From NCBI GenBank assembly GCA_964393845.1, contig CAYMUX010000001.1, positions 17,556 to 81,555 of the forward strand: a stretch of 64,000 nt of DNA, written 5' to 3'. This document shows positions 8,744 to 54,448 of this stretch, one piece after another. The position numbers and the translations under genes are program-made. Each line of letters opens with the position of its first letter. Within the stretch, counting starts at the first letter, position 1. The notes beneath the pieces were generated by a model. The model did no database searches. It was not told the origin of the DNA and saw nothing but the letters and a program-made list of their open reading frames with translations. The stretch is from an uncultured Nitrospiraceae bacterium. Lineage in GTDB: Bacteria > Nitrospirota > Thermodesulfovibrionia > UBA6902.

Positions 8744-10429
8744 TTGCAGGGAAATAAATATTTGATTGATCTTATGAGCGTCGGGAATAAAAAAGTATCT
8801 ATCAGCCTTAAGGAGGCGCTATTTGTTCTATGTATAATTTTATTCGCCGGTATAATCCGTATCCCTTCCCTGACACAGCCTATAGGCCCCGATCAGGGTA
8901 TTATGTCTGTAATCGGCAAGGGCCTCCTGAATGGAGAACTCCCTTATAGAGATAACTGGGAGATGGCTTCACCGGCAATATTTTTCACCTATGCATTGAT
9001 GTTCAAGACATTCGGATTGTCGATGGCCGCAATCCCTGTTACTGATACATTAGTCTCCATGTTGACAACCTTATTGGTGTTTATGCTGGGCAGAACGGTT
9101 TGGGACAATAAGGTCGGCGGTGTCAGCGCGCTGCTCTATGCATTCTTTTCCAATGGCATTCGTATAGGCATGCATTCCGCAGGTGACACTGCATTTGGAA
9201 CATTCTGGTATATTGCTCAGAGGGAGTCTTTTATGGTGCCGCTTATAGCGGGGAGTTTTTATCTCATATATAAATCGGGAAACGGCTCAAGGAATCCATT
9301 GAAATTGATCCTGGCAGGCTTATTGTCCGGGCTGGCCTTTGTATATAAGTTTCCTGCCTTGCTGTTTTTTATGTGCATTATTTTGTACGTGAATGTGAGT
9401 TTTCTGTTCAATAAAGAACGGAAAACAGTTAAGCAGTTAGCAGGTGATAATTTGTCCCTGATATCGGGTTTTATCCTTGCCATTGTCCCCTTTGTTTTAT
9501 TTTTTGCTTCCAAGGGCGCGTTGAAAGATATGACTGATGTAATTTTCAAATACGTTTCCTCTGTCTACGGCCAGGTAGAGCATGATTATCTCGTAATGGC
9601 CAGAATCGGGTTTGAACATACCGTTTTTCTGGCTAAAGAAAATTTTGTGATCTGGTTATTGTGTTTCGCCTCATCAATTTATATTCTTTTAAACGACCGC
9701 AAAAAAGAAAATTTATTGATTGTGCTATGGGCTGCTGCATCTCTATTGTATGTGATCAGTCACAGAGAATTTTTCGGGTATCATTATCTGATTATTTTCC
9801 CCTCATTCTCGATATTGTCGGGCTACGGGATAGCAAAGATATTCGGGCAGGACTTCAATCTTCGCGGTTTCTTCTCAGGACAAACAGGCAAGGCAATGGT
9901 CGGTTTTATTTTAGCCGCCAACCTGCTTTTTTTTGCCACAATCAATCATATGCATTACACAAAGTTTTTCTATTATGTAACCGGTAAGATCTCTCAGGAT
10001 GAGTATTATCAATTCTTCAGTGCTTATCCTGATCACGACTATTCCTTTCCCGCTGATTATAAAGTGGCTCAATATATTAAAAGCCAAACGAAGCCTGACG
10101 ACATGATATATTCCCTCGGCGGAATTGAAAGCGTTATATACTTCCTGACCGACAGAAAATCACCTTCAAGATTCATCTTTTCATGGATTATATTGCAATA
10201 TGCTCACAGCAAGGTAGATATGGCCGCAGAATACAGGAAAGAGCTTCTGGCTGATTTAAAGGCAAAAACCCCAAAGTATATTATAACCGTCCGATCATTA
10301 GAGACCTTTAAGGAGTACGTTGATATTTATGCATTCATAAATAATAATTACCTCCTTGAAAAGACTTTCCCTGACGACAGGTTTGTATATGTTTACAGAC
10401 AACAGGGTGTAAGCAGGATTTCATCTTAA
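8744..10429 (+). CDS. GT-C fold membrane glycosyltransferase (ArnT/PMT, GT39/GT83-like)
   Basis: Polytopic N-terminal domain with a PYRDNWE loop motif. Large TM core plus C-terminal periplasmic domain. TTG start; an alternative ATG lies at 8774. Confidence 0.6.
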   Translation: MQGNKYLIDLMSVGNKKVSISLKEALFVLCIILFAGIIRIPSLTQPIGPDQGIMSVIGKGLLNGELPYRDNWEMASPAIFFTYALMFKTFGLSMAAIPVTDTLVSMLTTLLVFMLGRTVWDNKVGGVSALLYAFFSNGIRIGMHSAGDTAFGTFWYIAQRESFMVPLIAGSFYLIYKSGNGSRNPLKLILAGLLSGLAFVYKFPALLFFMCIILYVNVSFLFNKERKTVKQLAGDNLSLISGFILAIVPFVLFFASKGALKDMTDVIFKYVSSVYGQVEHDYLVMARIGFEHTVFLAKENFVIWLLCFASSIYILLNDRKKENLLIVLWAAASLLYVISHREFFGYHYLIIFPSFSILSGYGIAKIFGQDFNLRGFFSGQTGKAMVGFILAANLLFFATINHMHYTKFFYYVTGKISQDEYYQFFSAYPDHDYSFPADYKVAQYIKSQTKPDDMIYSLGGIESVIYFLTDRKSPSRFIFSWIILQYAHSKVDMAAEYRKELLADLKAKTPKYIITVRSLETFKEYVDIYAFINNNYLLEKTFPDDRFVYVYRQQGVSRISS

Positions 10430-10437
10430 AATATTAA

Positions 10438-12108
10438 ATGAACTCGCAACTCCAGATAAACATAACCGGTGAAAAATTCAGCGCCCGTGAGATATCTATT
10501 CTGTTTTTTATCCTGCTCTCGGTGTTTGTATTAAGATTTCCTTCTTTTCTCCAGCCATGGGGGGGAGACCAGGCGGTATATGGATATATTGCAAAGGAGA
10601 TGCTGGACGGCAAAGTGCCGTACCGGGATATGTATTCGAGTACGGGTTATGGAGTGTTTTTTGCTTATGCCGTGCTGTTAAAAATCTTCGGCAATAATAT
10701 GCTGGCCCTTCATTTAGGTGATTTTATAGCGTCAATTTTGACCGTTATAATTGTTTATTATCTGACCAGGCTGTTATATGGAAAGGAGTGCGCAATTATC
10801 GCAGGGATTATCGCGGCTTTATTCGGAAGCGGCCGGGCCTTCAGCGGTCTCTATGAGATGAAGGGCGCATGGGGAACATACTGGCAGTTGGCCCAGAGAG
10901 AAGTCTTTATGACACCGCTTATTGCAGCCGGTATCCTTCTTTCCTTACTGGCTGACCGGAACAGAAAATGGCATCTCTATTTCTGGGCCGGAGTATCTAT
11001 TGGTTTGGCGGTTGTTTTGAAAATTACTGCCGTTATTATGTTGCCGATTCTCATCTTATATATTGTCATGAGTGAATTCTTCAGCCATGACGGAGGTGGT
11101 TTCAGGTCTTCTCTGTATAAAACAGCAGGCTTGATTTTCGGGGCATTAGTAATTCAACTTCCGTTTCTTTATTACTTCTGGATACATGACAGCCTCTATA
11201 TAATGTACAAGGCTGTCTTTGTTCATACTTCGGTATATGCCAAGCTTTCCAGGGGATTGATGCTGGTCAATGCATTTGAAGGCAATACTTACGTAATGAG
11301 CGAGAACTTGGTGATGTGGGTATTTTCACTGGGTGCAATGTTGCATTTGCTGGCGCATGAAAGGAAGAGGGAAACCTTCCTTGTTTTGGCCTGGACTGTA
11401 GGCATACTGATAATGATATGGGGACAGGGGAAATTTTTTGGTTATCACTTTCTTTTAATTCTCGGACCATTGTCTGTATTAACGGGATATGGCATAAAGC
11501 AGTTTCTGAAGATGGAATCCAGCTGGAAGGACTCAATTATTGCCGCTCGTAATAATATGATTGCTATTGTGCTATGGGTCTTTTTAGCCGGCAGCCTTGT
11601 GGTTTTTTTAGGCAGCAATTATGACTACTATCGCTGGAATATCCAATACCTTACAGGGAAGATAACCAGGGACCAATATTATGAGGTATTTAATGAATTT
11701 CCACTGCATCTGTATTCTTTTCGTTCCGATTATGATGTAGTAAATTATCTGAAAATGCATGCTCAGCCGGGCGATTCCCTCCGTACGATTAATTGCGGAG
11801 GAGATACGATCATTCACTATCTTTCCGGGCTTCGCTCGGCAACAAGATTTACATCTACCTGGTACCTGTTTAATAAGGGGTTATATAATAATACTCTTTC
11901 GGACCAGTTGAGGGACGAATTTATCGAAGGGATAAGTAAGGAAAAGCCGGGATATATCCTGCTGGTTTACTATAATATGGAAGAATTTATGAGAGAATAT
12001 AACAGAGATGATTATGGTGATGTTGCAAGATTGATGGATTACATTAAAGACAATTATGTGGTGGAAAAGGCATTCCGGGACAGGCGCACATTGTATAGAA
12101 GGATATGA
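10438..12108 (+). CDS. GT-C fold membrane glycosyltransferase, tandem paralog of the preceding gene
   Basis: Collinear similarity to 8744-10429 (PYRD loop, YWQLAQRE/FMTPLIA block, FFGYH block). Confidence 0.6.
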   Translation: MNSQLQINITGEKFSAREISILFFILLSVFVLRFPSFLQPWGGDQAVYGYIAKEMLDGKVPYRDMYSSTGYGVFFAYAVLLKIFGNNMLALHLGDFIASILTVIIVYYLTRLLYGKECAIIAGIIAALFGSGRAFSGLYEMKGAWGTYWQLAQREVFMTPLIAAGILLSLLADRNRKWHLYFWAGVSIGLAVVLKITAVIMLPILILYIVMSEFFSHDGGGFRSSLYKTAGLIFGALVIQLPFLYYFWIHDSLYIMYKAVFVHTSVYAKLSRGLMLVNAFEGNTYVMSENLVMWVFSLGAMLHLLAHERKRETFLVLAWTVGILIMIWGQGKFFGYHFLLILGPLSVLTGYGIKQFLKMESSWKDSIIAARNNMIAIVLWVFLAGSLVVFLGSNYDYYRWNIQYLTGKITRDQYYEVFNEFPLHLYSFRSDYDVVNYLKMHAQPGDSLRTINCGGDTIIHYLSGLRSATRFTSTWYLFNKGLYNNTLSDQLRDEFIEGISKEKPGYILLVYYNMEEFMREYNRDDYGDVARLMDYIKDNYVVEKAFRDRRTLYRRI

Positions 12109-12761
12109 AAACATTTACTGCGGAAGATATTGAATCAATAAAGAGAGAAATCATTAAAATTTATTCTCAGGACTTTGTCAGCAAGATGTATACGTTATTA
12201 AGATTAAAACTTGCCCCCATGATTCAGATGATAAAATACGTGCCTGAGAAAGGGGACATCCTTGATCTTGGCTGTGGAAACGGTATCGTTGCAAATATCC
12301 TTTCCTTAGGCGCTCCTGAAAGAAAGGTATATGGAGTTGATCTGTCTGCCGGCAGAATAGAGGCAGCGAGCAGGATTTCCAGGGGGAACCCGAATCTGGA
12401 ATTTGTGGCAGGAGATGTGAACACAGTCCTTTTTGAAAGGTTTGAGATCGTCACCCTCATTGACTTGCTGCATCATATGCCTTTTAAGGAACAGGAGGTC
12501 CTGTTGAATAAAATTTATCGCAAACAGGATGAAGGGGATTTATTAATAATAAAGGATCTTGAAAAATCGCCTTATTGGAAGTATATATTTCATTATATCC
12601 AGGATTCCATTTCTTACAGAGGAAGACTATATTTCAGGAGCGCCGAAGATATGGAAGAGCTGTTGAAGAATACTGGATATCAGGTTGAAACAGTATCGCT
12701 TGCAAGCGGCTATCCACATCCTCATGTACTGTATAGATGTAAAAAAGGTCAAAGTAATTAA
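12105..12761 (+). CDS. Class I SAM-dependent methyltransferase
   Basis: ILDLGCGNGIV motif I. VYGVDLS motif II. Confidence 0.7.
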   Translation: MKTFTAEDIESIKREIIKIYSQDFVSKMYTLLRLKLAPMIQMIKYVPEKGDILDLGCGNGIVANILSLGAPERKVYGVDLSAGRIEAASRISRGNPNLEFVAGDVNTVLFERFEIVTLIDLLHHMPFKEQEVLLNKIYRKQDEGDLLIIKDLEKSPYWKYIFHYIQDSISYRGRLYFRSAEDMEELLKNTGYQVETVSLASGYPHPHVLYRCKKGQSN

Positions 12762-12815
12762 GATATAAATGTTGCCGGGAAATACCGAAAAATATAAAAG
12801 AGCAGGCATAGGATC

Positions 12816-13760
12816 ATGAATAATAAATTAATATCTGTTGTAGTGCCGGTTTTTAATGAAAGCGTGGTTATTGAGGCATCTTATCAGCGCATAAAGAATG
12901 TAATGAACTCGCTTGATCCAATGTCTTATGAGATAATTTTTATAGATGACGGCAGTAAGGATGATTCATATCAAAAAATGGTGCAGTTGGCAGATTTAGA
13001 TTCTAATGTCAGAGTTATTAAATTTTCAAGAAATTTCGGCCATCAGATTGCGATTACAGCGGGCATTGATTATGCGAAGGGAGATGCAGTCATATTAATT
13101 GACGCCGACCTTCAGGACCCGCCTGAAGTTATAAAGGAATTCATTGAAAAATGGGAAGAGGGTTATGATGTTGTGTACGGGGTCCGTGAAAGAAGAGACG
13201 GTGAAGGCAAAATGAAGCTTATTACCGCAGCATTGTTTTACAGGATATTAAGGAAGATCATTAAAATAGAAGTCCCTGTGGACACCGGCGATTTCAGACT
13301 GATGAGCCGGCGTGTAGTCGACAGGTTTAAAGAATTTAAGGAAAAAGACAGATTTGTAAGAGGGTTGGTCAGCTGGGTAGGGTTTAAACAGACAGGAGTG
13401 CTTTATAAAAGAGACAGGCGATTAGCAGGTGAAACAAAATATCCATACAGTAAAATGATCAAGTTTGCCATTGACGGAATTACTTCTTTTTCAAGTGTTC
13501 CGCTGCGGTTGGCTACATGGCTTGGGTACTTTACATCTTTTCTGGCTTTTTTATATTTATTAAGTGTTTTTATTCAGAAGGTCCTCGGGTTCACCGTCCA
13601 AGGATGGGCCACGATTATGGTCGGCATGTTGTTTCTGGGGGGCGTTCAATTAATCTGCCTGGGAATAATAGGGGAATATATCGGACGAATCTTTAATGAG
13701 ACAAAACAGAGGCCCATGTATGTGATAGAGGAGATATATTCTGCCGGAGTGAAGGAATGA
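12816..13760 (+). CDS. GT2 polyprenyl-phosphate sugar synthase (GtrB/ArnC/DPM1-like)
   Basis: VVVPVFNE ... IFIDDGSKDDS ... ILIDADLQDPPE motifs. Two C-terminal TM helices with a GIIGEYIGRIF tail. Confidence 0.8.
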   Translation: MNNKLISVVVPVFNESVVIEASYQRIKNVMNSLDPMSYEIIFIDDGSKDDSYQKMVQLADLDSNVRVIKFSRNFGHQIAITAGIDYAKGDAVILIDADLQDPPEVIKEFIEKWEEGYDVVYGVRERRDGEGKMKLITAALFYRILRKIIKIEVPVDTGDFRLMSRRVVDRFKEFKEKDRFVRGLVSWVGFKQTGVLYKRDRRLAGETKYPYSKMIKFAIDGITSFSSVPLRLATWLGYFTSFLAFLYLLSVFIQKVLGFTVQGWATIMVGMLFLGGVQLICLGIIGEYIGRIFNETKQRPMYVIEEIYSAGVKE

Positions 13761-15133
13761 AAAAGAATCTGTTCATAACAGGCGCCACCGGATTCATAGG
13801 CACGAATCTCCTCACAAAAATTAATCCGGAAGAATACGAAAATATTTACTGTCTCGGCAGAAAAGAAAACGACCTGATAAAACGGCTGTCCGGAAATCAT
13901 AATTTTAAATTTATTAAAGCTGATATATCCGAGCCGGAAAAATATGCGCAGTATTTAAATTCATCCGACATAGTACTCCACCTCGCAGCATTGACAGGGA
14001 AGGCTGAACCGGAAGAATATTTCAGGGTCAATAGTGAAGGCACCAGGAGTTTGCTGGGACAGTGTTTGAAGAGCCGCGTGCAGCAATTTATATTTATCAG
14101 TACGATTGCGGCTGATTTTACAAACATAGAGGGATACCACTATGCAAAATCCAAGATTGAAGCTGAAAAAAACGTACAGAGGAGCGGTATCCCATATACA
14201 ATTTTGAGACCTGCAATTGTCATAGGCAGAGGCGCTTCGATTTTAGTCAGTTTATTGAAACTGGCAAAGGCCCCGATTGTGCCGGTATTTGGAGACGGTT
14301 CAGCAAAGATACAACCAATTTACATCGATGATTTAGTAGCGTGCATCCTGAGTATTATAGGAAACAAGGCCATTGAAAACCAGACCTTGACAATCGCCGG
14401 ACCGGAGCAGATCACTATGGAAGAGTTCATTAAGGTTTTACATGACAGTTCATATAAAAAGAAATTCCGGTTGATCCATCTGCCGGTCGGCCCGATTAAG
14501 AAAGCTTTATTATTATTAGAAAAGAAATTTTTGGCTTATCTGCCCTTTACAGCAGGTCAACTTGCCTCATTTACGAATGACGGCATTACAGACAGTAATC
14601 TCTGTGCCGGCTTGACAGGTTTGAAGTTAAAGAACGTCCATGAAATGATAAGGCTGTCTGCTTCACAAGACGGGCAAGCCGGTGAAACTTCCGTGGACCT
14701 GGAGCTTGAATGCAGCGCGTTCACCAATTATCTGATAAATATCAATCCGGACAAATATATTATAGAAAAATATATACAAGGGCATAAGATCAGCAGTATT
14801 AATAAGGAGACCGACTTTTTCAATGCCTTATTGATTAAGGCAGCCAATAGAAATTCATTTCTGCTTAAACTGGCGGACGCATATACAAGTATTTTTTACA
14901 AGAGCGCAGTCCTGAGAAAAAAGCTGCTGCTTTTGCTTGCTATCATGGAATGCTGTCCATCCACTTATCATCACATCGATACAGTAAATAAAGGGTCCGC
15001 AATATCTCTGTATATGAGAATGGGGCAAAAGGCATTCCTCTTTTTGATGAGTCTTCTTGCATCAATGATAGTGTTTTTACCATTCAGGTTTTATTCATCC
15101 TTAAGAAACGGATCGAGGCAGCAGATTGAATAA
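13757..15133 (+). CDS. NAD-dependent epimerase/dehydratase (extended SDR) with a C-terminal extension of about 180 aa
   Basis: ITGATGFIGTNL Rossmann motif. YxxxK (YHYAKSK). Extra C-terminal region with a hydrophobic end. Confidence 0.7.
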   Translation: MKKNLFITGATGFIGTNLLTKINPEEYENIYCLGRKENDLIKRLSGNHNFKFIKADISEPEKYAQYLNSSDIVLHLAALTGKAEPEEYFRVNSEGTRSLLGQCLKSRVQQFIFISTIAADFTNIEGYHYAKSKIEAEKNVQRSGIPYTILRPAIVIGRGASILVSLLKLAKAPIVPVFGDGSAKIQPIYIDDLVACILSIIGNKAIENQTLTIAGPEQITMEEFIKVLHDSSYKKKFRLIHLPVGPIKKALLLLEKKFLAYLPFTAGQLASFTNDGITDSNLCAGLTGLKLKNVHEMIRLSASQDGQAGETSVDLELECSAFTNYLININPDKYIIEKYIQGHKISSINKETDFFNALLIKAANRNSFLLKLADAYTSIFYKSAVLRKKLLLLLAIMECCPSTYHHIDTVNKGSAISLYMRMGQKAFLFLMSLLASMIVFLPFRFYSSLRNGSRQQIE

Positions 15134-16756: not shown

Positions 16757-18391
16757 TTGATAATGAATAAGACTGAAGATAATTTGTCATTAAATCCATA
16801 TTCTTTTCATTTGACGCGAGAAGTATGGGGATTAATACTTATAGTGGCATGTTATCTTCTGGCAGGTATGATCGCTTTAAAATTCCATGCAATCCTCTCA
16901 GATTATGAAAGGGATGCAACCGAAATGCTTTTTGATGCAAAGAGAATATTGGCCGGAGAGGGTTATAACAGTGATTTCTGGCCGTTTGGGTACATGGCAA
17001 TGATTGCTTTTACAAAGCTCATCACCGACATAGATTTTTTTACATCTGCAAAATTAATTGCACTTTTTTCCGGAGCCGGAGTCTTAATTCTTACATATTT
17101 AATCGGCAAACAAGTATTTTCGGAAAAGATTGCTGTTTTGGCGGTGTTGATATTGGCAAGTAATCACTTTTTCTTTTCACATTCCTTTTTAGTTGAAATG
17201 GATATGCCGTTTACGTTGCTATTATTATTATCAATATACTTTCTTATAAAAGGAAATGAATGGAGAAATTTCCTCTTGTGCGGGGCATTTGCGGGAATAT
17301 CCTATATGGTGAAATACGGGGCATATGCTCTTTTCCCGGTAGTAGCAGTAGTTGCATTAATTAATATTACAGATAAAGGGATTGTTGATTCTTTGAAAAA
17401 AGTGATGATTTTCTTTGCAGCATTCTTTATCTTTTCATCGCCGTGGCTTATAAATAATACAATAAAAAACGGCAGCCCTTTTTATAGTAAACACTATGTT
17501 AATATCGCATGGGGAATGAATAGACCCCAGCTGATGCCTGACAAATATTGGGTGGAATATTTCAGACTTAATGAAGAGTATTCCTCTATGAAGGATGTCG
17601 TCGCTGACACAAAAAAATTTGTGGGAAATTGGTTAGGCAATATCAGGGGGCTTCCTATAAATATTTTCAACATACTATCTATTACGGGTATTTTTCTGCC
17701 GCTTGCTTTTCTTATGGCTTTTAAAGCTTTGGACAGACGAAGGTTAATTTTAATTTTGCTGACTCTGAGCTATGTAAGCCTGGTAACGATGGCCTATACC
17801 TGGAACAGATATCTGATACCATTAATGCCGGTACTATGTATATTTATTGCATTTTGCATTCATGAAATTTTACCGGAGTCTTTCAGCTTGAAAAAAATAA
17901 TTGAAAGACTTTCTTTTAATATCCCTTTCAGGATAATTATTGTTGCGATGCTGATCTTGTTCTCTGTTATAAAGTCCTTTGGCGTGGTGACTGAATTTAT
18001 GCGGAAGGAGCATATATACGAATGGAAAGTTGCGGGAGAATGGCTAAAGCCTAAATTAAAAAATGACGACTGGATCATGGTGCCTAAACCACAGGCAGCC
18101 TGGTTTGCCGGAACAGATAAATTTGTTAAATATCCTGCTGATGATTCTTTACCGCTTGAAGATGTGGTTAAGAAGCGTGAGCAAAACACTTTTTTCTTTT
18201 GGCAGGAAACTTTGACTACTAAAATAATAACGGATGTTGATTACCTTATTTATGATGAACGGTGGTGGAAATGGTTTCTGCCGTCCCTCATGTCAGAAAA
18301 TGGGCCGATAGTACCGGAGAATTTTTTACCTATATTTTCCACAAAAGGTGCAAAGACTCACATAATTATTTATAAAATTATCCATGAGTAA
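16757..18391 (+). CDS. GT-C fold membrane glycosyltransferase (ArnT/PMT-like)
   Basis: Polytopic membrane protein with an early loop (DAKRILAGEGYNSDFWPFGY) like PMT_2/ArnT enzymes. About 11 TM helices plus C-terminal soluble domain. Confidence 0.55.
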   Translation: MIMNKTEDNLSLNPYSFHLTREVWGLILIVACYLLAGMIALKFHAILSDYERDATEMLFDAKRILAGEGYNSDFWPFGYMAMIAFTKLITDIDFFTSAKLIALFSGAGVLILTYLIGKQVFSEKIAVLAVLILASNHFFFSHSFLVEMDMPFTLLLLLSIYFLIKGNEWRNFLLCGAFAGISYMVKYGAYALFPVVAVVALINITDKGIVDSLKKVMIFFAAFFIFSSPWLINNTIKNGSPFYSKHYVNIAWGMNRPQLMPDKYWVEYFRLNEEYSSMKDVVADTKKFVGNWLGNIRGLPINIFNILSITGIFLPLAFLMAFKALDRRRLILILLTLSYVSLVTMAYTWNRYLIPLMPVLCIFIAFCIHEILPESFSLKKIIERLSFNIPFRIIIVAMLILFSVIKSFGVVTEFMRKEHIYEWKVAGEWLKPKLKNDDWIMVPKPQAAWFAGTDKFVKYPADDSLPLEDVVKKREQNTFFFWQETLTTKIITDVDYLIYDERWWKWFLPSLMSENGPIVPENFLPIFSTKGAKTHIIIYKIIHE

Positions 18392-18437: not shown

Positions 18438-20381
18438 ATGGGAATCAGCGATTTAAGAGAAAGAAGAATAATATTCTTGCTGTCAGCAGGGGTAATTACC
18501 GGTTCAATAATCGGGCTTATTACATCTTTTTATTTCATCCTGTCAAATCGGTATATCCAATATGAAATGTATAGAATAGCGGCTTTTGTTTTTCGAGAAA
18601 ATATGAATTACAGTATTCTCTTTACTCTTGTCGGATTTGCGGGATTGTATATGCTCTGGTTTCTGCTCGTAGAAAAAATAAAATTTAATAAAATAAAAGT
18701 TGAATATTTCTATAAATTGGTAATCGTTATTTCCTTTATATGTATAGTCACTGATTTATTACTTAGGGTATTCGTAGATATTCCTTTACTATACGGGCTA
18801 AAAGATTTATTAAGAATATCGCATCGGTTTCTGCTGGGGCCAATGACGTTCCAGAAATTATTAGATACGGTAAACTCATTTCTTACAGGTTACATTATTT
18901 TAATTTGCATTGGCGCTATTGCCGTTCCCATTATATATCGCTTGCTCAAGAGGTTACCAACGGAAAAATTATCAAACTGTGCACAAAAGAAATATTTTGC
19001 GCATTCAGCTCTTGTTTTAGGTGCTTTTATATTAGTTTTAAACTTGAGTATTGTTATCGATAGAAGGATAAATACTCAGGATGGACCAAATGTTATTTTT
19101 ATTGTTGTTGACGCCCTGCGGGCGGATCATATCAGTAATTATGGATACGACAGATTAACCAGCCCGAATATTGATAGCCTGATCAACGATGGAATAGTGT
19201 TTGAAAATGCTATTAGCCAAGGCAACATGACAACGCTTTCAATGCCTTCCATGTTTACGGGACTATATACATCGGATCACGGAGCTCATATGTTGCGAAA
19301 AATAGAAACCAGATTTGCTCCTGTAAGTGATAGATTCACTACTATCGCAGAAGTTTTTAATAATGCCGGTTATATTACACAGGCGGTATCATGTCAGCCG
19401 TGGGTTTCTCCTGAAACTGGCTATGGCCAGGGATTTGACAGCTTTGAAATAGTCAGCGATTCAAGTGATAACTTATCTGATCAGATAACTGTTGAAAGAG
19501 CGCTTGAATGGATAAATAAGAAATCAGGTAAGAAATTTTTTCTTTTCCTTAATCTAATGGGTCCACATACACCATATAATCCGCCGCCGCCATATGATAC
19601 CCTGTATTTCTCAGAATATAAAAATAAATCAAAATTGATTTCGGATTTGAATAATTTCTATTTGCAGCAGAATCACGGAGAATATTACAAATTATTAATG
19701 GATACTAAAGGGGAGAATATATCCAAAGACGAGTTGAATCAATTAATGTCTTTATATGACGGGAAAATAACCTACACCGACTATCAAATCGGCCGTTTGA
19801 TTGATAAGTTGAAAGCGTTGAATATTTATGACAATACCATGATAGTTTTGACTGCGGACCATGGAGAGGCCTTCCTTGAGCATGGTATGTTTTTACACGG
19901 CAGAAGTCTTTATAATGAAGAACTTCATGTTCCGCTTATTATGACTTATCCGAATAAATTACCAAAGGGAAGGAAAGTAAAAGATATCGTGGAACTTGTT
20001 GATATATTACCTACAATCGCAAGTGTCACAGGCATCCCTGTATCCGGAATAAAAATGCGTGGAGTATCTTTATATCCTATGACTGATAATTCTGATCGTT
20101 TTGTTTATAGCGAAGGGAGCGGTCGCGTGAAATACAGGACTGATAAATGGAGCCTTATTTGTGACAGCAGCGATTGGATTTGTGAGCTCTATGATTTGGA
20201 AAATGACCGCAGCGAATTAAATAACATAATAGAAAGCAATCATAATATTGCTTCTGAGATGAAAAAAGGACTTTTTAAAGTAGTTGATAATAAAATGTAT
20301 CCTTCGGTCAGCACTGTCAAGGCCAGGATAATCCCCGAGGAAACAGAGAAGACTTTAAAATCATTGGGCTATTTGCGATAG
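18438..20381 (+). CDS. Membrane-anchored sulfatase-fold (alkaline phosphatase superfamily) transferase with LtaS/EptA/OpgB-like architecture and a C-terminal LKSLGYLR tail
   Basis: About 5 N-terminal TM helices. PNVIFIVVDALRADH metal-binding block. TSPNIDSL. TADHGEAF ... HG. Nucleophile region TTLSMPSM (no C/S-x-P-x-R). Confidence 0.75.
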   Translation: MGISDLRERRIIFLLSAGVITGSIIGLITSFYFILSNRYIQYEMYRIAAFVFRENMNYSILFTLVGFAGLYMLWFLLVEKIKFNKIKVEYFYKLVIVISFICIVTDLLLRVFVDIPLLYGLKDLLRISHRFLLGPMTFQKLLDTVNSFLTGYIILICIGAIAVPIIYRLLKRLPTEKLSNCAQKKYFAHSALVLGAFILVLNLSIVIDRRINTQDGPNVIFIVVDALRADHISNYGYDRLTSPNIDSLINDGIVFENAISQGNMTTLSMPSMFTGLYTSDHGAHMLRKIETRFAPVSDRFTTIAEVFNNAGYITQAVSCQPWVSPETGYGQGFDSFEIVSDSSDNLSDQITVERALEWINKKSGKKFFLFLNLMGPHTPYNPPPPYDTLYFSEYKNKSKLISDLNNFYLQQNHGEYYKLLMDTKGENISKDELNQLMSLYDGKITYTDYQIGRLIDKLKALNIYDNTMIVLTADHGEAFLEHGMFLHGRSLYNEELHVPLIMTYPNKLPKGRKVKDIVELVDILPTIASVTGIPVSGIKMRGVSLYPMTDNSDRFVYSEGSGRVKYRTDKWSLICDSSDWICELYDLENDRSELNNIIESNHNIASEMKKGLFKVVDNKMYPSVSTVKARIIPEETEKTLKSLGYLR

Positions 20382-41502: not shown

Positions 41503-41520
41503 ATATCGTTTTGTAATACT

Positions 41521-42360: not shown

Positions 42361-42396
42361 CAGCGATTCATATTCAAATTCTTAGATAGATATGCC

Positions 42397-43710: not shown

Positions 43711-44794
43711 AGATATTCAAACAGGAGATTTGAGTATGGATCGTACCGGCTTTTTTGGAAAACTTCCAACAGCATCTATACCAATCATGATCTGTTTTGC
43801 CATACCTTCTTTTTTACTCATAAGCGCTTATCTCTATATGACTGTCTTTTATCATAAGCTCTGGCTTTTTAATACCGTTGTTCATGAGAATGGAAAATAT
43901 ACACTTCTGGAGGTGATTTTTTATTTCAAACACTTCAATTGGGAGATGCCGATAAAGATTCTATATGCTGTTTTTATCGTAGGGACTTTTTATTACTACG
44001 GGAATCCTTTAGAAACTAAAAGAAAGGTTCTTGCGCGGAGTAATTCTTCAAAGTGGATTTTGATCAGTCTTGTTTCTGTCCTGACTATAATGTCCGTAAC
44101 CACTATCTCAAACGTTATTCAGGATGGTTTCAAGGAAACGGTTCTCGGCTTCTTCCAGTACAAGACCACTGATGCAAGGCCCCCTGAATTCGGTTCTCAC
44201 TGGAGGAATCATTTCCTCAGCAATATTGTCCTTTTTTCAGTCACGGCTGTTGTTATAATGCTTTACCGGTTGATATTTTGTAACGGGATGTGGGAGAGGA
44301 GGAAATTTTATTATCTTCTCCCGTTCTCGATTGCGTTATTTGTCTGCCTTACTTTTATTTACGGATTTACCATGGACCCATTTATTAATCCCAGCTACCT
44401 TGGACATCAATTAAGGGAGATATTCGGGACCGACCTGCCGATCACTATGCTTCTGGCAACAGGACTTTTAATATATATGGAGGGAAAGTTTGATTCGAGA
44501 AAAGAGATTAATGAAATAATGAAGAAAGAAAAGGGCATAATAATCCGGCATCTTTCTGTCCTTATTATTCCGGCGGTTCTGCCGACGGTTTATTTGATTT
44601 TGAAGGTATTATCTCTTGATGTGTCGGGTGAAATAGCAAATATCGGAAGAACTGCAAACTGGTCAGTCCTTGATCTGTTTGCCTGGCACTTTTTTGAACA
44701 TTCACTTGATTATATCCTGGTATGTTCTCTTGTATGTTTTCTCTATCTACTGACTTTAAAGAAGGAATTGAGGCGGACAATAATTGAAAAATAA
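43700..44794 (+). CDS. Hypothetical polytopic membrane protein
   Basis: About 8 hydrophobic segments. No recognised catalytic motif. Start uncertain (an alternative ATG lies at 43736). Confidence 0.45.
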   Translation: MRNRDIQTGDLSMDRTGFFGKLPTASIPIMICFAIPSFLLISAYLYMTVFYHKLWLFNTVVHENGKYTLLEVIFYFKHFNWEMPIKILYAVFIVGTFYYYGNPLETKRKVLARSNSSKWILISLVSVLTIMSVTTISNVIQDGFKETVLGFFQYKTTDARPPEFGSHWRNHFLSNIVLFSVTAVVIMLYRLIFCNGMWERRKFYYLLPFSIALFVCLTFIYGFTMDPFINPSYLGHQLREIFGTDLPITMLLATGLLIYMEGKFDSRKEINEIMKKEKGIIIRHLSVLIIPAVLPTVYLILKVLSLDVSGEIANIGRTANWSVLDLFAWHFFEHSLDYILVCSLVCFLYLLTLKKELRRTIIEK

Positions 44795-45716
44795 CCTGGT
44801 AACGATCTTAAAAGTCCTCGTATCCGGTGTCCTTCTATACCTGATTTCTAAAGAAATTGACTGGAGCCAGTTAATCGTTTCCATAAAGCAGGGACGATTC
44901 ATTTATCTGTTTATCGGGATAATTTTAGGATGCGGATTTAACGTGGTAAAATTTATCAAGTGGCATTATCTGATAAGGACAGGAGACCATAATTATTCAT
45001 TTCTAGATGGAGTAAAATCTTACATGATCGGCAATAGCCTGGGCTTGATCACGCCTATGCGCGCCGGCGACCTCGGCAGGGCCCTGTATTTTCATGTGGA
45101 CGACCGTCCCAGGATCATAGGGCTTACGGTCATGGACAGATTTACCGAGCTTGTTGCTGTTCTGGCTCTCTCTATCGGAGGATGTTTTGTCCTTCTGAAT
45201 AAAGGAGTGGGAATGATCGTCGTATCGCTTGCCTTCTTTGGTATTTTATCGCTTTATGCTGCCGGGTTCCTCCATGGGATAGTTAAAAGAATTATTCCGG
45301 ATGGAAGGATTGGCGGGAAAATAATAAAATTGATGGATATCTTAAGATTACTGGACAAAAATACTGTATCTATTGTTCTGCTACTTTCATTTGTCGCATT
45401 TGTGTTGTGTATTATACAGTTCTACTTTCTCATAATTGCATTCGAGAAAATATCATTGTCATCCGTGTTTCTGGCTACCCCATTAGTGACACTCTCTTCG
45501 ATACTCCCTGTGAGTATTATGGGGCTTGGGGTCCGGGAAGGAATTTCAATTGTCCTTCTTGCAAAATTCAATATATCTGCTGCAACGGCTGTCTCCGCGG
45601 CTTTTCTTTTTTTCCTGATAAATAATGTTTCAATAAGCGGTATTGGAATTTATTATCTGTCAAAGGTTAGAATAAAAACTCAAACTCAAGAGGCAAACTG
45701 TGAATTTAAGATTTAA
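44784..45716 (+). CDS. Flippase-like / lysylphosphatidylglycerol-synthase-TM-region family membrane protein
   Basis: LVSGVLLYLISKEIDW ... NSLGLITPMRAGDLGRALYF, typical of the PF03706-type flippase-like domain. About 8 TM helices. Confidence 0.55.
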   Translation: MKNNLVTILKVLVSGVLLYLISKEIDWSQLIVSIKQGRFIYLFIGIILGCGFNVVKFIKWHYLIRTGDHNYSFLDGVKSYMIGNSLGLITPMRAGDLGRALYFHVDDRPRIIGLTVMDRFTELVAVLALSIGGCFVLLNKGVGMIVVSLAFFGILSLYAAGFLHGIVKRIIPDGRIGGKIIKLMDILRLLDKNTVSIVLLLSFVAFVLCIIQFYFLIIAFEKISLSSVFLATPLVTLSSILPVSIMGLGVREGISIVLLAKFNISAATAVSAAFLFFLINNVSISGIGIYYLSKVRIKTQTQEANCEFKI

Positions 45717-49968: not shown

Positions 49969-49970
49969 TC

Positions 49971-50795: not shown

Positions 50796-50864
50796 GCTTT
50801 TGCGTTAATCTATCTAATTCGGTTTAAAGCAATCTTCATCAAAAAGGGCTCAGGCAAAAATATT

Positions 50865-51824
50865 ATGGACTTGTCGATTGTTGTTCCATTGTATAACGAA
50901 TATGAAAGTGTCGGGGAGCTTTATTGGAAGATTAAATCCGAGCTTCAAAAGCTTTCTCTAACATATGAGATCATTTTTATAGATGACGGATCAACAGACG
51001 GGACATGGGACGTTGTTGAAAAATTGAAAGCTGACAATCCCGAATTAAAGGGAATTAAATTCAGACACAATTGCGGCCAAACAAGCGCAATGGTGGCCGG
51101 ATTTAATTATGCATCAGGCAAAATAATCGTCACGCTGGACGGAGACCTGCAGAACGACCCATCCGATATTTCCGTGTTACTGGAGAAAATAAAAGAAGGC
51201 TATGATATAGTGAGCGGCTGGCGCAGAGACAGGAAAGATCATTTTTCAAGGGTCTTGCCGTCAAGGATTGCTAATGCCTTTATCTCAGTAGCAACCGGGG
51301 TGAAATTGCATGATTACGGCTGCACTCTCAAGGCCTACCGCGCCGAATGTATCAAACAGCTCCATGCATACGGAGAGATGCACAGGTTTTTCCCGGCCCT
51401 TGCCAGTATGACCGGTGCAAGGGTCACCGAGATCCCTGTTAAACATCATACAAGGAAGCACGGCGAATCAAAATACGGATTTGAACGCATCTTCAAGGTG
51501 TTCAGCGATATTCTGGCCATGAGCCTGATTATCAGGTTTTCATCCACTCCGCTAAAGGGTTTTGTTTATTGCGCTATCCCGTTTCTGTTCCTGACATTTT
51601 GTTTTGGACTGATGGGATGTTTGGCTGTCCTTTTGGACTTTACCAAGGGGAAAGACACCATTTTTTTTATTGCAACTGCTTTGAGCGGGATGGGGGCCAT
51701 ACATCTTATTACACTCGGAGTTATAGGGGAACTGGTGGTCAGTACCAGCGACCTGACCCACACACAACTTCCTGAGACGACCAAGAAAACAATCACTATC
51801 GATGATGACCGCGAGACAAAATAA
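50865..51824 (+). CDS. GT2 polyprenyl-phosphate sugar synthase (GtrB/ArnC-like), third copy
   Basis: IVVPLYNE ... IFIDDGSTDGT ... VTLDGDLQNDP. C-terminal TM pair and GVIGELV tail. Confidence 0.8.
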   Translation: MDLSIVVPLYNEYESVGELYWKIKSELQKLSLTYEIIFIDDGSTDGTWDVVEKLKADNPELKGIKFRHNCGQTSAMVAGFNYASGKIIVTLDGDLQNDPSDISVLLEKIKEGYDIVSGWRRDRKDHFSRVLPSRIANAFISVATGVKLHDYGCTLKAYRAECIKQLHAYGEMHRFFPALASMTGARVTEIPVKHHTRKHGESKYGFERIFKVFSDILAMSLIIRFSSTPLKGFVYCAIPFLFLTFCFGLMGCLAVLLDFTKGKDTIFFIATALSGMGAIHLITLGVIGELVVSTSDLTHTQLPETTKKTITIDDDRETK

Positions 51825-52773
51825 TTATACTTTAAAGTATTCGGTTATTTTTCTCCTCGAAGACCAGAATAAGGATGTCCTGCGTTTTATGAAGGATATG
51901 TATGATCTTTTTTCTTCAAGACCTGACTCATTTGAAATGATCATCATTGCAAACGGCACAGGAGGTTTTATAAGAAATATGCTGATGGGAGATCCCGTAT
52001 TTGCCGGCAAGATCAAGGCCCTGGAAATGAGCAATAAGGCATCTCAGGCCGTATGTCTTAAATCCATACTGAATGAGTGTAAAGGTGAATTCTTTGTAGT
52101 ATCCGGTTCATATCAGCAATTAATGCCGGAATCATATGGAAAACTTCTCGACAGCGTAGATGATGACACGGATATTGTAAGTCCATGGAGACAGCACAGG
52201 TTTGACCCTTCCATTTACAAGATGCAGTCAAGCGTATTTAATGCACTGGTAAGATGGATTACCGGATTTAATATGCATGATCTGAGTTGTAATGTGAGAA
52301 TATTCCGGCGTGAGGTGCTTGAGCGAACTGATTTGTACGGTAATATGTACCGTTTTCTTCCCATCTTTTCAGCGCTGAAGGGATTCAAAAACAGGGAAGT
52401 TAAATGCGAGCATTTCAAGGAACACGGTGAGCCTCGTAAGGCCCGGGCAGGCTTTTATCATTTATCAATTTATTTAAGCAGGATAATCGATGTTTTTACC
52501 CTTTACTTCAATACATCTTTTACAAAGAAACCGTTGAGATTTTTCAGTTCCATAGGAATTGTTTCCATTGTGATAAGCATAGTCATTAATTGCATACTCT
52601 TTCTTCAAAAAATATTTTATGGCCAGAATATGGCGCTCCGCCCAATATTCATATTGGCTATTTTCCTGTTAGTCGTAGGGGTACAATCTGCCGGTATGGG
52701 TTTACTTGGAGAGATCATTGCATTTACACATGGACGCCGCAAGAAGGAATATATCATAGAGAAGATAATATAG
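51802..52773 (+). CDS. GT2-like paralog with degenerate active-site motifs (probable pseudo-enzyme or divergent)
   Basis: Same length and C-terminal TM pair as the neighbouring GtrB-like gene. The DDG and DxD positions read IIANGTGG and VVSGSYQ. Confidence 0.5.
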   Translation: MMTARQNNYTLKYSVIFLLEDQNKDVLRFMKDMYDLFSSRPDSFEMIIIANGTGGFIRNMLMGDPVFAGKIKALEMSNKASQAVCLKSILNECKGEFFVVSGSYQQLMPESYGKLLDSVDDDTDIVSPWRQHRFDPSIYKMQSSVFNALVRWITGFNMHDLSCNVRIFRREVLERTDLYGNMYRFLPIFSALKGFKNREVKCEHFKEHGEPRKARAGFYHLSIYLSRIIDVFTLYFNTSFTKKPLRFFSSIGIVSIVISIVINCILFLQKIFYGQNMALRPIFILAIFLLVVGVQSAGMGLLGEIIAFTHGRRKKEYIIEKII

Positions 52774-52810
52774 ACGACTGAGGACCCTGAAATAGTATCC
52801 TTTTATCATT

Positions 52811-54448
52811 ATGCTCAATTCTGAACAGACAAATATGAATTTGAAATATCATATGCTTTTTGCCTTCATATTAATATCGGCGGTTGCATTGAGGATTATT
52901 TATTACATGGGGCCCTCCGGTGCCGACGATATGATCTACTTTTCCGTTGTGGAGAAATTATTATCAAATCAGGATGTAGGGACAGCCATAAGCTCGTCAA
53001 CGCATTGGGGTGTAAGGCTTGGCATGGTCCTGCCTGTCTGGGCGGCTATGAAGGTATTCGGCATTTCGGAGTTTTCATCATATTTATTCCCGCTGATTAC
53101 GTCGGCAGGCATATTGGTTTTTGTTTACATTGCAGGTTTGAGACTATTCAATCTTCCGGTGGCACTGTTGTCTTCACTGACTTTTGCCCTGCTGCCGCAA
53201 GATATATATTTGTCTACCGTTATGTATCCGGACGGGCCTGTCGTTCTTTTCAGTGCACTGTTTATTTACTTGTTCTATAAATTGTCGGGAAATAAAGAAG
53301 CAGATGTCAAACAATCAATAATTGCGGGGGTTATTCTCGGTCTTGCTTATTTCATTCGTGAAACTGCTTTGATATTACTGATTACAATACCGATACTTTT
53401 TTTCCATGCGCCGAACAAGAAGCATTTTTTCAGGACAGCGTTTTTTATTTTAACAGGTCTGTTGATTGCAATTGCTTTTGAGATGCTTGTTTTCTGGTTG
53501 CTGACCGGTGATCCCCTTACCAGGTGGGAAATCCTCCTGGGCAAAACAAAAGTCCTTGAACCGCGAGCGTTTACTGTTTACAGTCATGGCAATGTAAAGT
53601 CCGGAAGTTTGATAAGTAAATATTTGTTCGATCCGTTCTTTGTGATCTTCGCTACTCACTGGATATCTCCTCTGATGGTTATAGTAGCGGCTGGAGTTGT
53701 TATTCTACAGATGACCCGAAAAGAGAATTACAAGTTCTTCTCTTTGAAGAAAGGTCATTTTTTATGGCTGTTTATTTTAACGTTTATTACATTGGCTTTT
53801 TATTCTTTCGGGCCTATATATGGTTTTGCCGTGCCGTTAAAAAGGGACGTAAGATATTACCATACCATAACTCCACTGGCATCCTTGCTGTCGGGGGTTA
53901 TTGTCTATGAATTCCTGGTCCAAAAAGGCGTCAAGAGACTTATAGGTTATTCAATGATACTCTTTTATATCCTTGCATCTTCCATTTGTTTAGGGAGCAT
54001 AGTAAACAAGAATGTTCATGGCCTGGACCTGATTGAGGAATTTATTTCCCGAAATCCTGCGGAGAATTACATTATGCCGGTTATGTTGAAAAAGACGCTT
54101 CAATTCAAGAGGGGGGCTGATTTTGAGGATAATAAGATTATTACATATGATTACGACATTCGAAAAAAAATGGAACAGCAATTAAACACCCTCTTAATGG
54201 ACGTCCGTAAAGAAGGCGCGGTCCAATATATTTTTGTCATCCCAAAGATACATGAAATCCAGACTAAATTTAGGAGACAAATTAACTGGCCTATGGAAAA
54301 AATGAGACTTGTTAATGTAATGACTACAGCTCCGGGCCTCAGCTGCCGGATTATAAAATCAAACGACGTATTATTTAAAGTAACGCCGGACGCGATCAAA
54401 TCAAAGATATGCTATACCGCCGACGTTTATGTGTACCAGCTTAGATGA
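52811..54448 (+). CDS. GT-C fold membrane glycosyltransferase (ArnT/PMT-like)
   Basis: Polytopic. An early loop GPSGADDMIYFSVVEKL. About 11 TM helices plus a C-terminal soluble domain. Confidence 0.55.
   Translation: MLNSEQTNMNLKYHMLFAFILISAVALRIIYYMGPSGADDMIYFSVVEKLLSNQDVGTAISSSTHWGVRLGMVLPVWAAMKVFGISEFSSYLFPLITSAGILVFVYIAGLRLFNLPVALLSSLTFALLPQDIYLSTVMYPDGPVVLFSALFIYLFYKLSGNKEADVKQSIIAGVILGLAYFIRETALILLITIPILFFHAPNKKHFFRTAFFILTGLLIAIAFEMLVFWLLTGDPLTRWEILLGKTKVLEPRAFTVYSHGNVKSGSLISKYLFDPFFVIFATHWISPLMVIVAAGVVILQMTRKENYKFFSLKKGHFLWLFILTFITLAFYSFGPIYGFAVPLKRDVRYYHTITPLASLLSGVIVYEFLVQKGVKRLIGYSMILFYILASSICLGSIVNKNVHGLDLIEEFISRNPAENYIMPVMLKKTLQFKRGADFEDNKIITYDYDIRKKMEQQLNTLLMDVRKEGAVQYIFVIPKIHEIQTKFRRQINWPMEKMRLVNVMTTAPGLSCRIIKSNDVLFKVTPDAIKSKICYTADVYVYQLR

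Follow-up and report, generated by a model that had tools for sequence, protein, structure and literature searches.

Six GT-C glycosyltransferases with lipid-linked sugar donor synthases and putative donor-tailoring enzymes in one exopolysaccharide-type gene cluster of an uncultured Nitrospiraceae bacterium

Introduction

Extracytoplasmic glycosylation with undecaprenyl phosphate (Und-P)-linked sugars is known mainly from O-antigen serotype conversion, the decoration of teichoic acids and rhamnans, lipid A modification and mycobacterial arabinan, and the known cases usually involve one to three enzyme pairs. In the three-component systems, an auxiliary cytoplasmic epimerase can alter the lipid-linked donor (PMC11127046, PMC8035078). 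There is precedent both for the epimerisation of lipid-linked donors before transfer by a glycosyltransferase of the GT-C fold (GT-C) and for GT-Cs with C-terminal glycan-binding domains (PMC11127046). Functionally known GT-Cs of the PMT_2 type mostly act on polymers such as lipoteichoic acid, wall teichoic acid, rhamnan and secondary cell wall polysaccharide (PMC8035078). GacI/GacL followed by GacH set a precedent for decoration (10.1101/180810, 10.1101/337519), and NaxD deacetylates Und-P-N-acetylgalactosamine ahead of GT-C transfer (PMC11279074). Here we analyze a 64-kb stretch of DNA from an uncultured Nitrospiraceae bacterium (contig CAYMUX010000001.1, positions 17,556 to 81,555; hereafter the window), in which the same logic appears multiplied and joined by putative donor-tailoring and phospho-transfer-type enzymes. 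We propose, with a probability of roughly 0.6, that at least four stacked three-component extracytoplasmic glycosylation systems lie in this XrtA/PEP-CTERM-type exopolysaccharide (EPS) operon and decorate a glycan.

Results

Six GT-C glycosyltransferases in one cluster

The plus strand of the window (GC content ~0.40) is tiled by 46 open reading frames (ORFs; mechanical ORFs of at least 150 amino acids, aa), with gaps mostly below 60 nucleotides (nt) and many stop/start overlaps of 1–4 nt. Genes are named below by their first nucleotide (Table 1). A first-pass annotation had flagged eleven of them as GT-C enzymes or polyprenyl-phosphate-sugar synthases, and all eleven are mechanical ORFs on this strand at exactly matching coordinates. 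Pfam and NCBIfam scans of every window ORF describe a single giant polysaccharide-type cluster, which includes two Wzx-type flippases (7269 and 62456), GT4 and GT2 transferases, a carbamoyltransferase, deacetylases, three S-adenosylmethionine (SAM) methyltransferases and two B12-radical-SAM enzymes. Overlaps of 1–4 nt tie a synthase or GT-C to its neighbor at 12816/13757, 13757/15133, 23696/24682, 29949/32036 and 52811/54445. An Rfam scan and a tRNA scan of the window were both empty.

As the first-pass annotation had proposed, six large polytopic proteins are classed as PMT_2/ArnT-like GT-C glycosyltransferases, an assignment on which the PMT_2 search, the topology, the acidic motifs in the loop after the first transmembrane (TM) segment and the fold match of 29949 agree. 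Five of the six pass the PMT_2 cut-off (gathering score, 26.1 bits) and 29949 falls short of it by 0.7 bit; 16757 passes the PMT cut-off as well. The protein that clears PMT_2 narrowly, 8744, is a full-length paralogue of 10438 (30% identity over 547 aa, E 2e-81). A hydropathy scan gave 5–11 TM segments per protein, with at least eight in four of the six, seven in 29949 and five in 8744. The last segment ends near residue 390–486 and is followed in every case by a soluble C-terminal domain of 130–300 aa. Read from the sequence, all six carry a K/R before TM1 and an acidic motif within ~15 residues of it (PDQ, GDQ, DYERD, PDDY, AED and ADD across the six). By family and co-encoded synthases, they would use polyprenyl-phosphate-linked sugar donors. 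The counter-case raised in the annotation, that the polytopic proteins are of the Wzy/WaaL type, was rejected, as no Wzy or WaaL model matched any of them.

Only 8744 and 10438 can be aligned with each other over their full length, and the others are barely alignable. This mutual divergence indicates old, distinct lineages and not recent duplicates, and it is better explained by different specificities than by gene dosage. The five GT-Cs with an orthologue in a related metagenome-assembled genome (MAG) showed ratios of nonsynonymous to synonymous substitution rates (dN/dS) of 0.10–0.20, indicative of purifying selection. The annotation had also called six GT-Cs in one locus unusual, and the number does exceed the 1–3 pairs per genome tabulated in a review (PMC8035078), the one benchmark used for rarity.

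For 29949, we collected homologues, aligned 92 and predicted the structure with AlphaFold2 (AF2). The predicted local distance difference test score (pLDDT) was mostly above 90 in the TM domain (residues 1–420) and low in the C-terminal 280 aa. In a Foldseek search against the Protein Data Bank (PDB), the top 27 matches of the model were all GT-C proteins (STT3, AglB, ArnT 5F15, DPY19, Pmt4 and PglB), with EmbB and AftA among the weaker ones. The closest relatives of 29949 are bacterial TMTC-like proteins that join a GT-C to tetratricopeptide repeats (TPR), some with DUF1736 (PF08409). The earlier label of 29949 as TMTC/DUF1736-like thus holds for its closest relatives but not for its own domains: it has neither TPR nor a DUF1736 Pfam match, and PMT_2 was its sole match at E ≤ 0.01. 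Its C-terminal domain is lineage-specific and was found in only three database sequences. Single-sequence PDB searches with 29949 and 20386 gave nothing useful, and a profile PDB search with the 29949-homologue alignment was dominated by TPR proteins matched through the homologues' C-termini and was uninformative on the TM domain.

Table 1 Features of the window discussed in the text, with the evidence for each assignment
Coordinates	Strand	Feature	Evidence or remark
7269..8735	+	Wzx-type flippase (Polysacc_synt, 12 TM)	Pfam 99.8 bits; directly upstream of GT-C pair
8744..10429	+	GT-C 1, 561 aa	PMT_2 27.7 bits; PDQ after TM1; dN/dS 0.10
10438..12108	+	GT-C 2, 556 aa	PMT_2 47.5 bits; 8 TM; dN/dS 0.20
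12105..12761	+	SAM methyltransferase	Pfam; start overlaps GT-C 2 stop by 4 nt
12816..13760	+	GtrB-type polyprenyl-phosphate hexosyltransferase, donor synthase A	GtrB 5EKP E 3e-96; TM pair 243-285
13757..15133	+	SDR epimerase/reductase with ~150-aa C-terminal piece containing one hydrophobic helix	Pfam Epimerase 87 bits
15133..16743	+	GMC-family flavoprotein, putative sugar dehydrogenase, Cys-rich motif	GMC_oxred_C; profile against PDB FAD-GDH 6A2U E 3e-17
16757..18391	+	GT-C 3, 544 aa	PMT_2 54.1 and PMT (PF02366) 34.7 bits; 10 TM; dN/dS 0.12
18438..20381	+	TM-anchored sulfatase-fold protein, 5 N-terminal TM helices, Thr at nucleophile position	Absent from related MAG
20386..22251	+	GT-C 4, 621 aa, PDDY motif	PMT_2 68.9 bits; 11 TM; weak Agl23/STT3 similarity
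22270..23685	+	B12-binding radical SAM enzyme, probable C-methylase or other tailoring	Pfam; 93% aa identity in relative
23696..24685	+	GT2, C-terminal hydrophobic region, not GtrB-type	Pfam; weak NCBIfam MftF/AglG-like matches; stop overlaps 24682 start
24682..25455	+	DPM1/PpgS-type GT2 without TM, candidate donor synthase B	257 aa; 5MLZ E 3e-19
27736..29892	+	TM-anchored sulfatase-fold protein	Pfam, TM scan, Thr alignment
29949..32039	+	GT-C 5, 696 aa, TMTC-like TM domain, AED motif	PMT_2 25.4 bits; homologues; AF2 and Foldseek
32036-33925, 34055-36172, 36228-38390, 38463-40526	+	Four TM-anchored sulfatase-fold paralogues	
40558..41502	+	GtrB-type polyprenyl-phosphate glycosyltransferase, donor synthase C	5EKP E 2e-54, DDG/DGD; TM pair
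41521..42360	+	YdjC-family deacetylase	YdjC 156.8 bits; 18 nt after donor synthase C
42397..43710	+	FAD oxidoreductase, PRK07233 type	490 bits, cut-off 252
43700..44794	+	Polytopic protein, no family assigned	Two relatives fused to GT87 (GT-C) domain
44784..45716	+	LPG_synthase_TM / flippase-like protein, candidate lipid-phosphate-sugar flippase	Pfam 125 bits; TIGR00374 above cut-off
50865..51824	+	ArnC-type polyprenyl-phosphate glycosyltransferase, donor synthase D	ArnC 9HWJ E 4e-50, DDG and DGD; TM pair
51802..52773	+	DXD-less ArnC paralogue, TM pair kept	End-to-end ArnC alignment E 2e-20; tandem with 50865-type gene in L006-L008
52811..54448	+	GT-C 6, 545 aa, ADD motif	PMT_2 51.9 bits; stop overlaps XrtA-system deacetylase start by 4 nt
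54445..56340	+	XrtA-system polysaccharide deacetylase and FemAB-family protein	PEP-CTERM locus markers

Donor synthases and a conserved DXD-less paralogue

Judged by their motifs, four catalytically competent donor synthases and one DXD-less paralogue are encoded in the locus, so that four of the four to five synthases annotated earlier are upheld and the fifth, 51802, changes class. Three of them (12816, 40558 and 50865) align over their full length to solved GtrB or ArnC structures, keep DDG and DXD intact and end in two TM helices. The structure matched by 12816, 5EKP, is Synechocystis GtrB, aligned at full length, and this protein also gave full-length NCBIfam PgfS/ArnC alignments. Both motifs are intact in 24682 as well; its best solved relative is the dolichyl-phosphate (Dol-P)-mannose synthase 5MLZ, and the Dol-P-hexose transferase and PpgS models match it near full length but below cut-off. 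The C-terminal TM pair, proposed earlier as a test of GtrB/ArnC identity, is found in four of the five GT2s (12816, 40558, 50865 and 51802) and is missing from 24682, a DPM1-type protein with no TM segment.

In 51802, ANG replaces DDG and GSYQQ replaces DXDLQ, and the first-pass annotation had called it a degenerate copy. A database search returned at least 364 relatives across phyla (50–60% identical; Nitrospirae, Desulfobacterales and other lineages), and all 18 that were aligned have lost both DDG and DXD. We therefore place 51802 in a conserved DXD-less family and reject its reading as a pseudogene or decaying duplicate. On three unrelated contigs with canonical XrtA loci (L006–L008), a 51802-type gene directly follows an intact 50865 orthologue (62–70% identical). 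The neighbors encode Bac_transf, Poly_export, GNVR, kinase and ATPase proteins in L006, and DUF3473, FemAB, Exosortase_EpsH and EpsI in L008. None of the three has a GT-C within 10 kb of the ArnC-like pair, which marks the pair as a feature of XrtA systems and not as a specific partner of 52811. GtrB and ArnC are tetramers, and 51802 is most plausibly a non-catalytic subunit of a hetero-oligomeric synthase with 50865. No description of an active/DXD-less ArnC pair in XrtA loci turned up in the literature searched.

The PEP-CTERM-associated markers mentioned in the first-pass annotation are both above cut-off at the level of equivalogs (TIGR03006, 395 bits against 276; TIGR03019, 298 bits against 260). 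That annotation had further suggested a search for an exosortase and for PEP-CTERM proteins; run on the 64-kb window, it found neither an exosortase nor a PEP-CTERM substrate ORF, and both might lie outside.

Putative donor-tailoring modules

Donor synthase gene 12816 overlaps 13757, which encodes a short-chain dehydrogenase/reductase (SDR); 13757 in turn overlaps the GMC-family flavoprotein gene 15133, and GT-C gene 16757 follows. The GMC family of 15133 comprises at least 1748 matches with 52–76% identity over all 536 residues, many of them on environmental contigs. We sampled this cassette in three contexts (L009–L011) and 80 metagenome loci, giving 83 loci in total (L009–L091). Of the 58 loci with sufficient sequence, 54 have an SDR-like ORF immediately before the GMC gene; a GtrB- or DPM1-like GT2 was present in the 3 kb upstream in 27 of 37. 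In many cassette loci, the part corresponding to the C-terminal ~150 aa of 13757 is encoded as a small ORF of its own, with both split and fused forms among L009–L011. The presence of a GT-C next to the cassette elsewhere is only partly shown: Pfam scans of the large polytopic neighbors in L009–L011 mostly returned nothing or sub-threshold PMT_2 matches.

The best solved relatives of the GMC family profile are the flavin adenine dinucleotide (FAD)-dependent glucose dehydrogenases (FAD-GDH) 6A2U and 8HDD and the fructose dehydrogenase 7W2J. In the profile comparison with the PDB, the family motif RKAC..GRCLWGCP.GALY aligns with RPTCCGNNNCMPICPIGAMY of FAD-GDH, a Cys motif that binds the 3Fe-4S cluster of that enzyme. 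The invariant cysteines of the family are C218, C224, C228, C243, C459 and C496, the first three of which align with the Cys-rich motif of 6A2U. Neither 13757 nor 15133 has a signal peptide. The simplest reading of an SDR paired with a GMC flavoprotein would be that the sugar loaded by 12816 is oxidized and then reduced while lipid-linked. The literature searched yielded no description of a GT2–SDR–GMC cassette.

A second module (40558–45716) places the YdjC enzyme 41521 next to the GtrB-like synthase 40558, the gene position of NaxD and LgmC. In two (P0388 and P0481) of about 292 relatives of the polytopic protein 43700, a GT87 (GT-C) domain precedes the 43700-like domain in the same protein, a hint that 43700 and GT-C enzymes may be functionally linked. 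We did not count 43700 as a seventh GT-C (hhalign probability against the TMTC-like TM alignment, 1.5%), and its AF2 model, made without an alignment, was discarded (pLDDT 44). Downstream, 45700–47817 and 47814–49760 encode N-terminally anchored Phosphodiest/alkaline-phosphatase-superfamily paralogues (705 and 648 aa, 40% identical); in L010, a 38%-identical orthologue of this type lies beside a TM-sulfatase-fold orthologue and the GMC cassette.

Six TM-anchored sulfatase-fold proteins

Sulfatase-fold genes alternate with GT-C genes (16757, 18438, 20386; 27736, 29949, 32036). The six encoded paralogues have 630–720 aa and 5–6 N-terminal TM helices and are 26–34% identical. An invariant Thr aligns with the Cys/Ser that is converted to formylglycine (fGly) in S1 sulfatases, and the P and R of C-x-P-x-R are unconserved. 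As the C/S-x-P-x-R motif is missing, the six cannot be fGly sulfatases, and a true S1 sulfatase function was rejected. In architecture and in the position of the nucleophile they resemble EptA, LtaS and GacH, with weak EptA/MCR similarity around the nucleophile; by analogy, they probably transfer phospho-substituents and do not act as sulfatases. Two of the six are missing from the related MAG, where 18438 is absent and 32036 is replaced by a GDSL-like gene, and this copy variation between relatives fits optional decoration steps. The first-pass annotation had listed neither these interleaved proteins nor the tailoring enzymes beside the synthases (SDR with GMC; YdjC).

Conservation of the locus

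A contig scan of the GTDB species set identified the MAG contig DYJL01000003.1 as the nearest genome; it is syntenic with the window at 61–93% aa identity (GC content of the locus 0.40–0.42), and all comparisons with the relative rest on this one genome. Other homologues of window proteins are labelled Nitrospirae, Thermodesulfovibrionia or Thermodesulfobacteriota. Against the MAG, dN/dS was 0.04–0.20 for five GT-Cs, two GtrBs and three TM-sulfatase-fold genes, which identifies them as real genes under purifying selection. The synonymous divergence (dS) is mosaic: most genes fall at 0.3–0.9, GtrB 12816 reaches 1.9 and SDR 13757 is saturated (window 12816–15133 against L004 4423–6737). The SDR is 61% identical to its counterpart at the aa level, compared with 81–93% for its neighbors. 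This mosaic divergence at 12816–15133 suggests that the donor module was replaced by recombination.

A 61-kb metagenome contig (Ga0209536_100000534, L012) carries a similar but rearranged multi-GT-C layout with a 74% identical GMC protein, its order being GT-C, radical SAM enzyme, GT-C, methyltransferase, GtrB, SDR, GMC, GT-C, GT-C, BNR-like protein, TM-sulfatase-fold protein and GT2. The multi-GT-C architecture recurs in a wider clade.

Other genes of the window

Between a methyltransferase and a TM-sulfatase-fold gene, 26228–27688 encodes a protein of 486 aa that is anchored by a single N-terminal TM segment and weakly resembles BNR/beta-propeller-lectin proteins (81% conserved in the relative); it may be a periplasmic glycan-binding or trimming protein. 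The segment 20386–25455 showed weak matches to archaeal Agl models (20386 to Agl23/STT3, 23696 to AglG, 24682 to AglJ/Dol-P-hexose transferase); a B12-radical-SAM enzyme lies inside it and methyltransferase 25482–26231 directly after it. All Agl matches were far below cut-off, and we take them as at most a slight indication that this segment could assemble a lipid-monophosphate-linked disaccharide. Four ORFs (1–882, 1058–1867, 6707–7309 and 49971–50795) have weak or no family assignment. Of these, 1058–1867 is similar to STM4011-type radical SAM proteins in their C-terminal part, and 49971–50795 has three hydrophobic segments and sits after the largest intergenic gap (210 nt).

Discussion

From the identities, folds, motifs, topology, synteny and conservation described above, we infer a working scheme whose donor chemistry, choice of flippases and sequence of steps, and most of all its acceptor, are proposals. 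On the cytoplasmic face, 12816, 40558, 50865 (with DXD-less 51802) and 24682 would load sugars from nucleotide sugars onto Und-P. The product of 12816 would then be oxidized by the FAD/Fe-S-type GMC protein 15133 and reduced by SDR 13757, with a net epimerization or a keto/deoxy sugar as the outcome; in this respect the cassette may be a hexose counterpart of DprE1/DprE2 with an unrelated oxidase, converting a polyprenyl-phosphate-hexose to another lipid-linked sugar before GT-C transfer. A cationic amino sugar would arise from the product of 40558 through N-deacetylation by YdjC 41521, as in FlmF2/NaxD, and methyl groups would possibly be added by the methyltransferases and B12-radical-SAM enzymes. 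Donors would next be flipped, for which Wzx-like 7269, flippase-like 44784 and 43700 are candidates; 7269 is also a candidate exporter of repeat units or lipid-phosphate-sugars, like GacK (PMC8035078). In the periplasm, each of the six divergent GT-Cs would attach a single sugar at a specific site of the exported glycan, and the six sulfatase-fold proteins would add phospho-substituents, as GacH does after GacL.

Several points weigh against this scheme. No acceptor was identified, and the sequences do not separate glycan, protein and lipid acceptors. The 64-kb window contains no priming transferase, Wzy, Wza/Wzc or exosortase, so that the backbone pathway is unseen, and no GtrA-family flippase. 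The SDR and GMC proteins could act on nucleotide sugars instead of lipid-linked ones. DPM1-like is a fair label for 24682, and its sequence cannot separate it from an ordinary soluble GT2. The ArnC-like pair may not feed GT-C 52811, and by sequence the sulfatase-fold domains lie nearer to true S1 sulfatases than to EptA/LtaS. We nevertheless favor a glycan acceptor because of the EPS context, the polymer acceptors of most functionally known PMT_2 GT-Cs, the glycan-binding C-terminal domains that GT-Cs of this kind can carry and the sulfatase-fold partners, which fit polymer decoration.

The first-pass annotation had speculated that part of the locus glycosylates secreted proteins. On this reading, which we consider unlikely, at least some of the GT-Cs, or all of them, would use Und-P-sugars for the O-glycosylation of PEP-CTERM or other envelope proteins, in the manner of bacterial Pmt, streptococcal Pgf/GtrB or eukaryotic TMTC/PMT enzymes. 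PgfS, a member of a streptococcal protein-glycosylation system, is the best NCBIfam model for both 12816 and 40558, but its scores (316 and 205 bits) stay well under the cut-off of 500, against an E-value of 3e-96 for GtrB 5EKP, which makes the similarity generic. The nearest relatives of 29949 are TMTC-like, and eukaryotic TMTCs are protein O-mannosyltransferases (PMC7801869); 29949 itself has no TPR domain with which to bind protein substrates. The PMT (PF02366) cut-off is passed by 16757. A protein acceptor does not follow from membership of PMT_2 (PMC8035078). Protein O-glycosylation that depends on GtrB is reported from streptococci (PMC12041528), and XrtA markers lie directly downstream here, with 52811 overlapping the XrtA deacetylase; however, the window holds no PEP-CTERM ORF or exosortase, and the three XrtA loci with an ArnC-like pair and no GT-C indicate that GT-Cs are not a core XrtA feature. 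Nothing found demonstrates protein glycosylation by the locus, and for PEP-CTERM proteins in particular the results weigh neither for such a modification nor decisively against it.

It is rather improbable that the GT-Cs assemble a whole glycan chain, or long side chains, in the periplasm with lipid-monophosphate donors, in the way that the Emb/Aft enzymes make the arabinan of mycobacteria. Six GT-Cs for four active synthases would allow several to share a donor, as Aft/Emb share decaprenyl-phosphate-arabinose, and an oxidase/reductase pair beside the synthase recalls DprE1/E2 (PMC11127046). EmbB and AftA do appear among the fold matches, but the best ones are STT3, ArnT and PMT; the proteins have 545–696 aa compared with ~1000 aa for the Emb type, and two Wzx flippases with several cytoplasmic GT2/GT4 enzymes are typical of a Wzx/Wzy repeat-unit pathway. 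Still less probable is that the modules modify lipopolysaccharide (lipid A or core), like ArnC/ArnD/ArnT, LgmABC and FlmF2/NaxD/FlmK, and that the EPS context is coincidental. That 50865 is most similar to ArnC, that a GtrB-like enzyme with YdjC makes up a known lipid A galactosamine pathway (PMC11279074) and that the TM-sulfatase-fold proteins show weak EptA/MCR similarity at the nucleophile would fit such a role. The order of ArnC-like enzyme, GT-C and NodB-family deacetylase (50865–55290) likewise recalls ArnC/ArnT/ArnD, and the deacetylase gives a weak ArnD match (22.5 bits), but it is an equivalog-level member of the XrtA system (395 bits). Moreover, the entire 64 kb is one co-directional EPS-type cluster without lipid A or core biosynthesis genes, and six GT-Cs with six EptA-like proteins far outnumber the modifiable sites of lipid A.

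Decoration of a glycan by stacked three-component systems thus remains our preferred reading. Since every enzyme class involved is known and the three-component scheme is established, the finding is not categorically new. Unusual are its scale, with six GT-Cs, four active synthases and six EptA-like proteins in one operon, and two accompanying units that appear portable: the GT2–SDR–GMC cassette (at least 83 metagenomic loci) and the active/DXD-less ArnC-like pair conserved in XrtA loci. The latter may make an ArnC-like synthase of one active and one DXD-less subunit a core component of XrtA/PEP-CTERM systems. That both are previously undescribed, the one as a lipid-linked sugar conversion and the other as a hetero-oligomeric core XrtA synthase, we put forward only tentatively and with considerable doubt. 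If true, a lipid-linked (amino)sugar from the ArnC-like pair could be the long-postulated modifier of EPS or PEP-CTERM proteins. Both units could broaden the known chemistry of lipid-linked donors and show what XrtA/PEP-CTERM systems attach, and where. The locus as a whole predicts an unusually heavily branched, charged polymer in an environmental diderm.

Comparison with known systems

With TMTC1–4, 29949 shares a TM domain with an acidic pair after TM1, GYHLTN, an ERFLYLPS-type loop and an ArnT-like GT-C fold (PMC7801869); it differs in having a 280-aa C-terminal domain in place of TPR repeats and a DUF1736 Pfam match. The encoding of a flavoprotein oxidase and an SDR with a synthase and GT-Cs recalls DprE1/DprE2, which feed GT-C arabinosyltransferases by epimerizing decaprenyl-phosphate-ribose. 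Unlike DprE1, which has the VAO/PCMH FAD-binding fold, 15133 belongs to the GMC family, carries a Cys-rich motif and is not a DprE1 homologue; its synthase is of the GtrB type and would act on a nucleoside diphosphate-hexose, in contrast to the phosphoribosyl pyrophosphate-dependent UbiA-type enzyme. The relation of 13757/15133 to DprE1/DprE2 is an analogy only.

The lipid A pathways (ArnC/ArnD/ArnT, FlmF2/NaxD/FlmK and LgmA/LgmC/LgmB) combine a synthase, deacylation by a YdjC- or NodB-family enzyme and GT-C transfer (PMC11279074). Their gene sets are reproduced by 40558 with 41521 and by 50865 with 52811 and 54445, although in an EPS/XrtA context, with no GT-C adjoining the YdjC module and with an FAD oxidoreductase, a flippase-like protein and polytopic 43700 added to it.

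In Streptococcus pyogenes, GacI/GacJ/GacK/GacL and GacH comprise a Und-P-N-acetylglucosamine synthase, a flippase of the Wzx type, a PMT_2 GT-C for the attachment of side chains to a polysaccharide and a TM-anchored sulfatase-fold enzyme, GacH, that adds glycerol phosphate afterwards (10.1101/180810, 10.1101/337519). The window likewise interleaves GT-Cs with TM-anchored sulfatase-fold genes. It differs in being a diderm XrtA-type EPS locus and not a Gram-positive wall rhamnan system, in having six copies each of the GT-C and sulfatase-fold types, in catalytic domains nearer to S1 sulfatases than to LtaS/GacH, and in a synthase partner that is a full-length DXD-less paralogue and not a small GacJ-like protein.

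The three-component systems compared were GtrA/GtrB/Gtr*, CsbB/GtcA/YfhO, the Csd systems and Citrobacter youngae ORF15/ORF12. As in these, GtrB/ArnC-type GT-A enzymes with a TM pair would make the Und-P-sugar, and PMT_2-type GT-Cs with a periplasmic C-terminal domain would transfer it. In contrast to one to three dispersed pairs, six GT-Cs and four or five synthases are gathered in one operon, which has no GtrA-family flippase and in which synthases and GT-Cs are not strictly adjacent one to one. The pairing of a GMC flavoprotein with an SDR as tailoring enzymes is undescribed in those systems as far as the literature searched shows. The C. youngae SDR ORF13 (PMC11127046) follows the same logic of lipid-linked tailoring that we propose for 13757/15133, where it would be joined by an unrelated oxidase.

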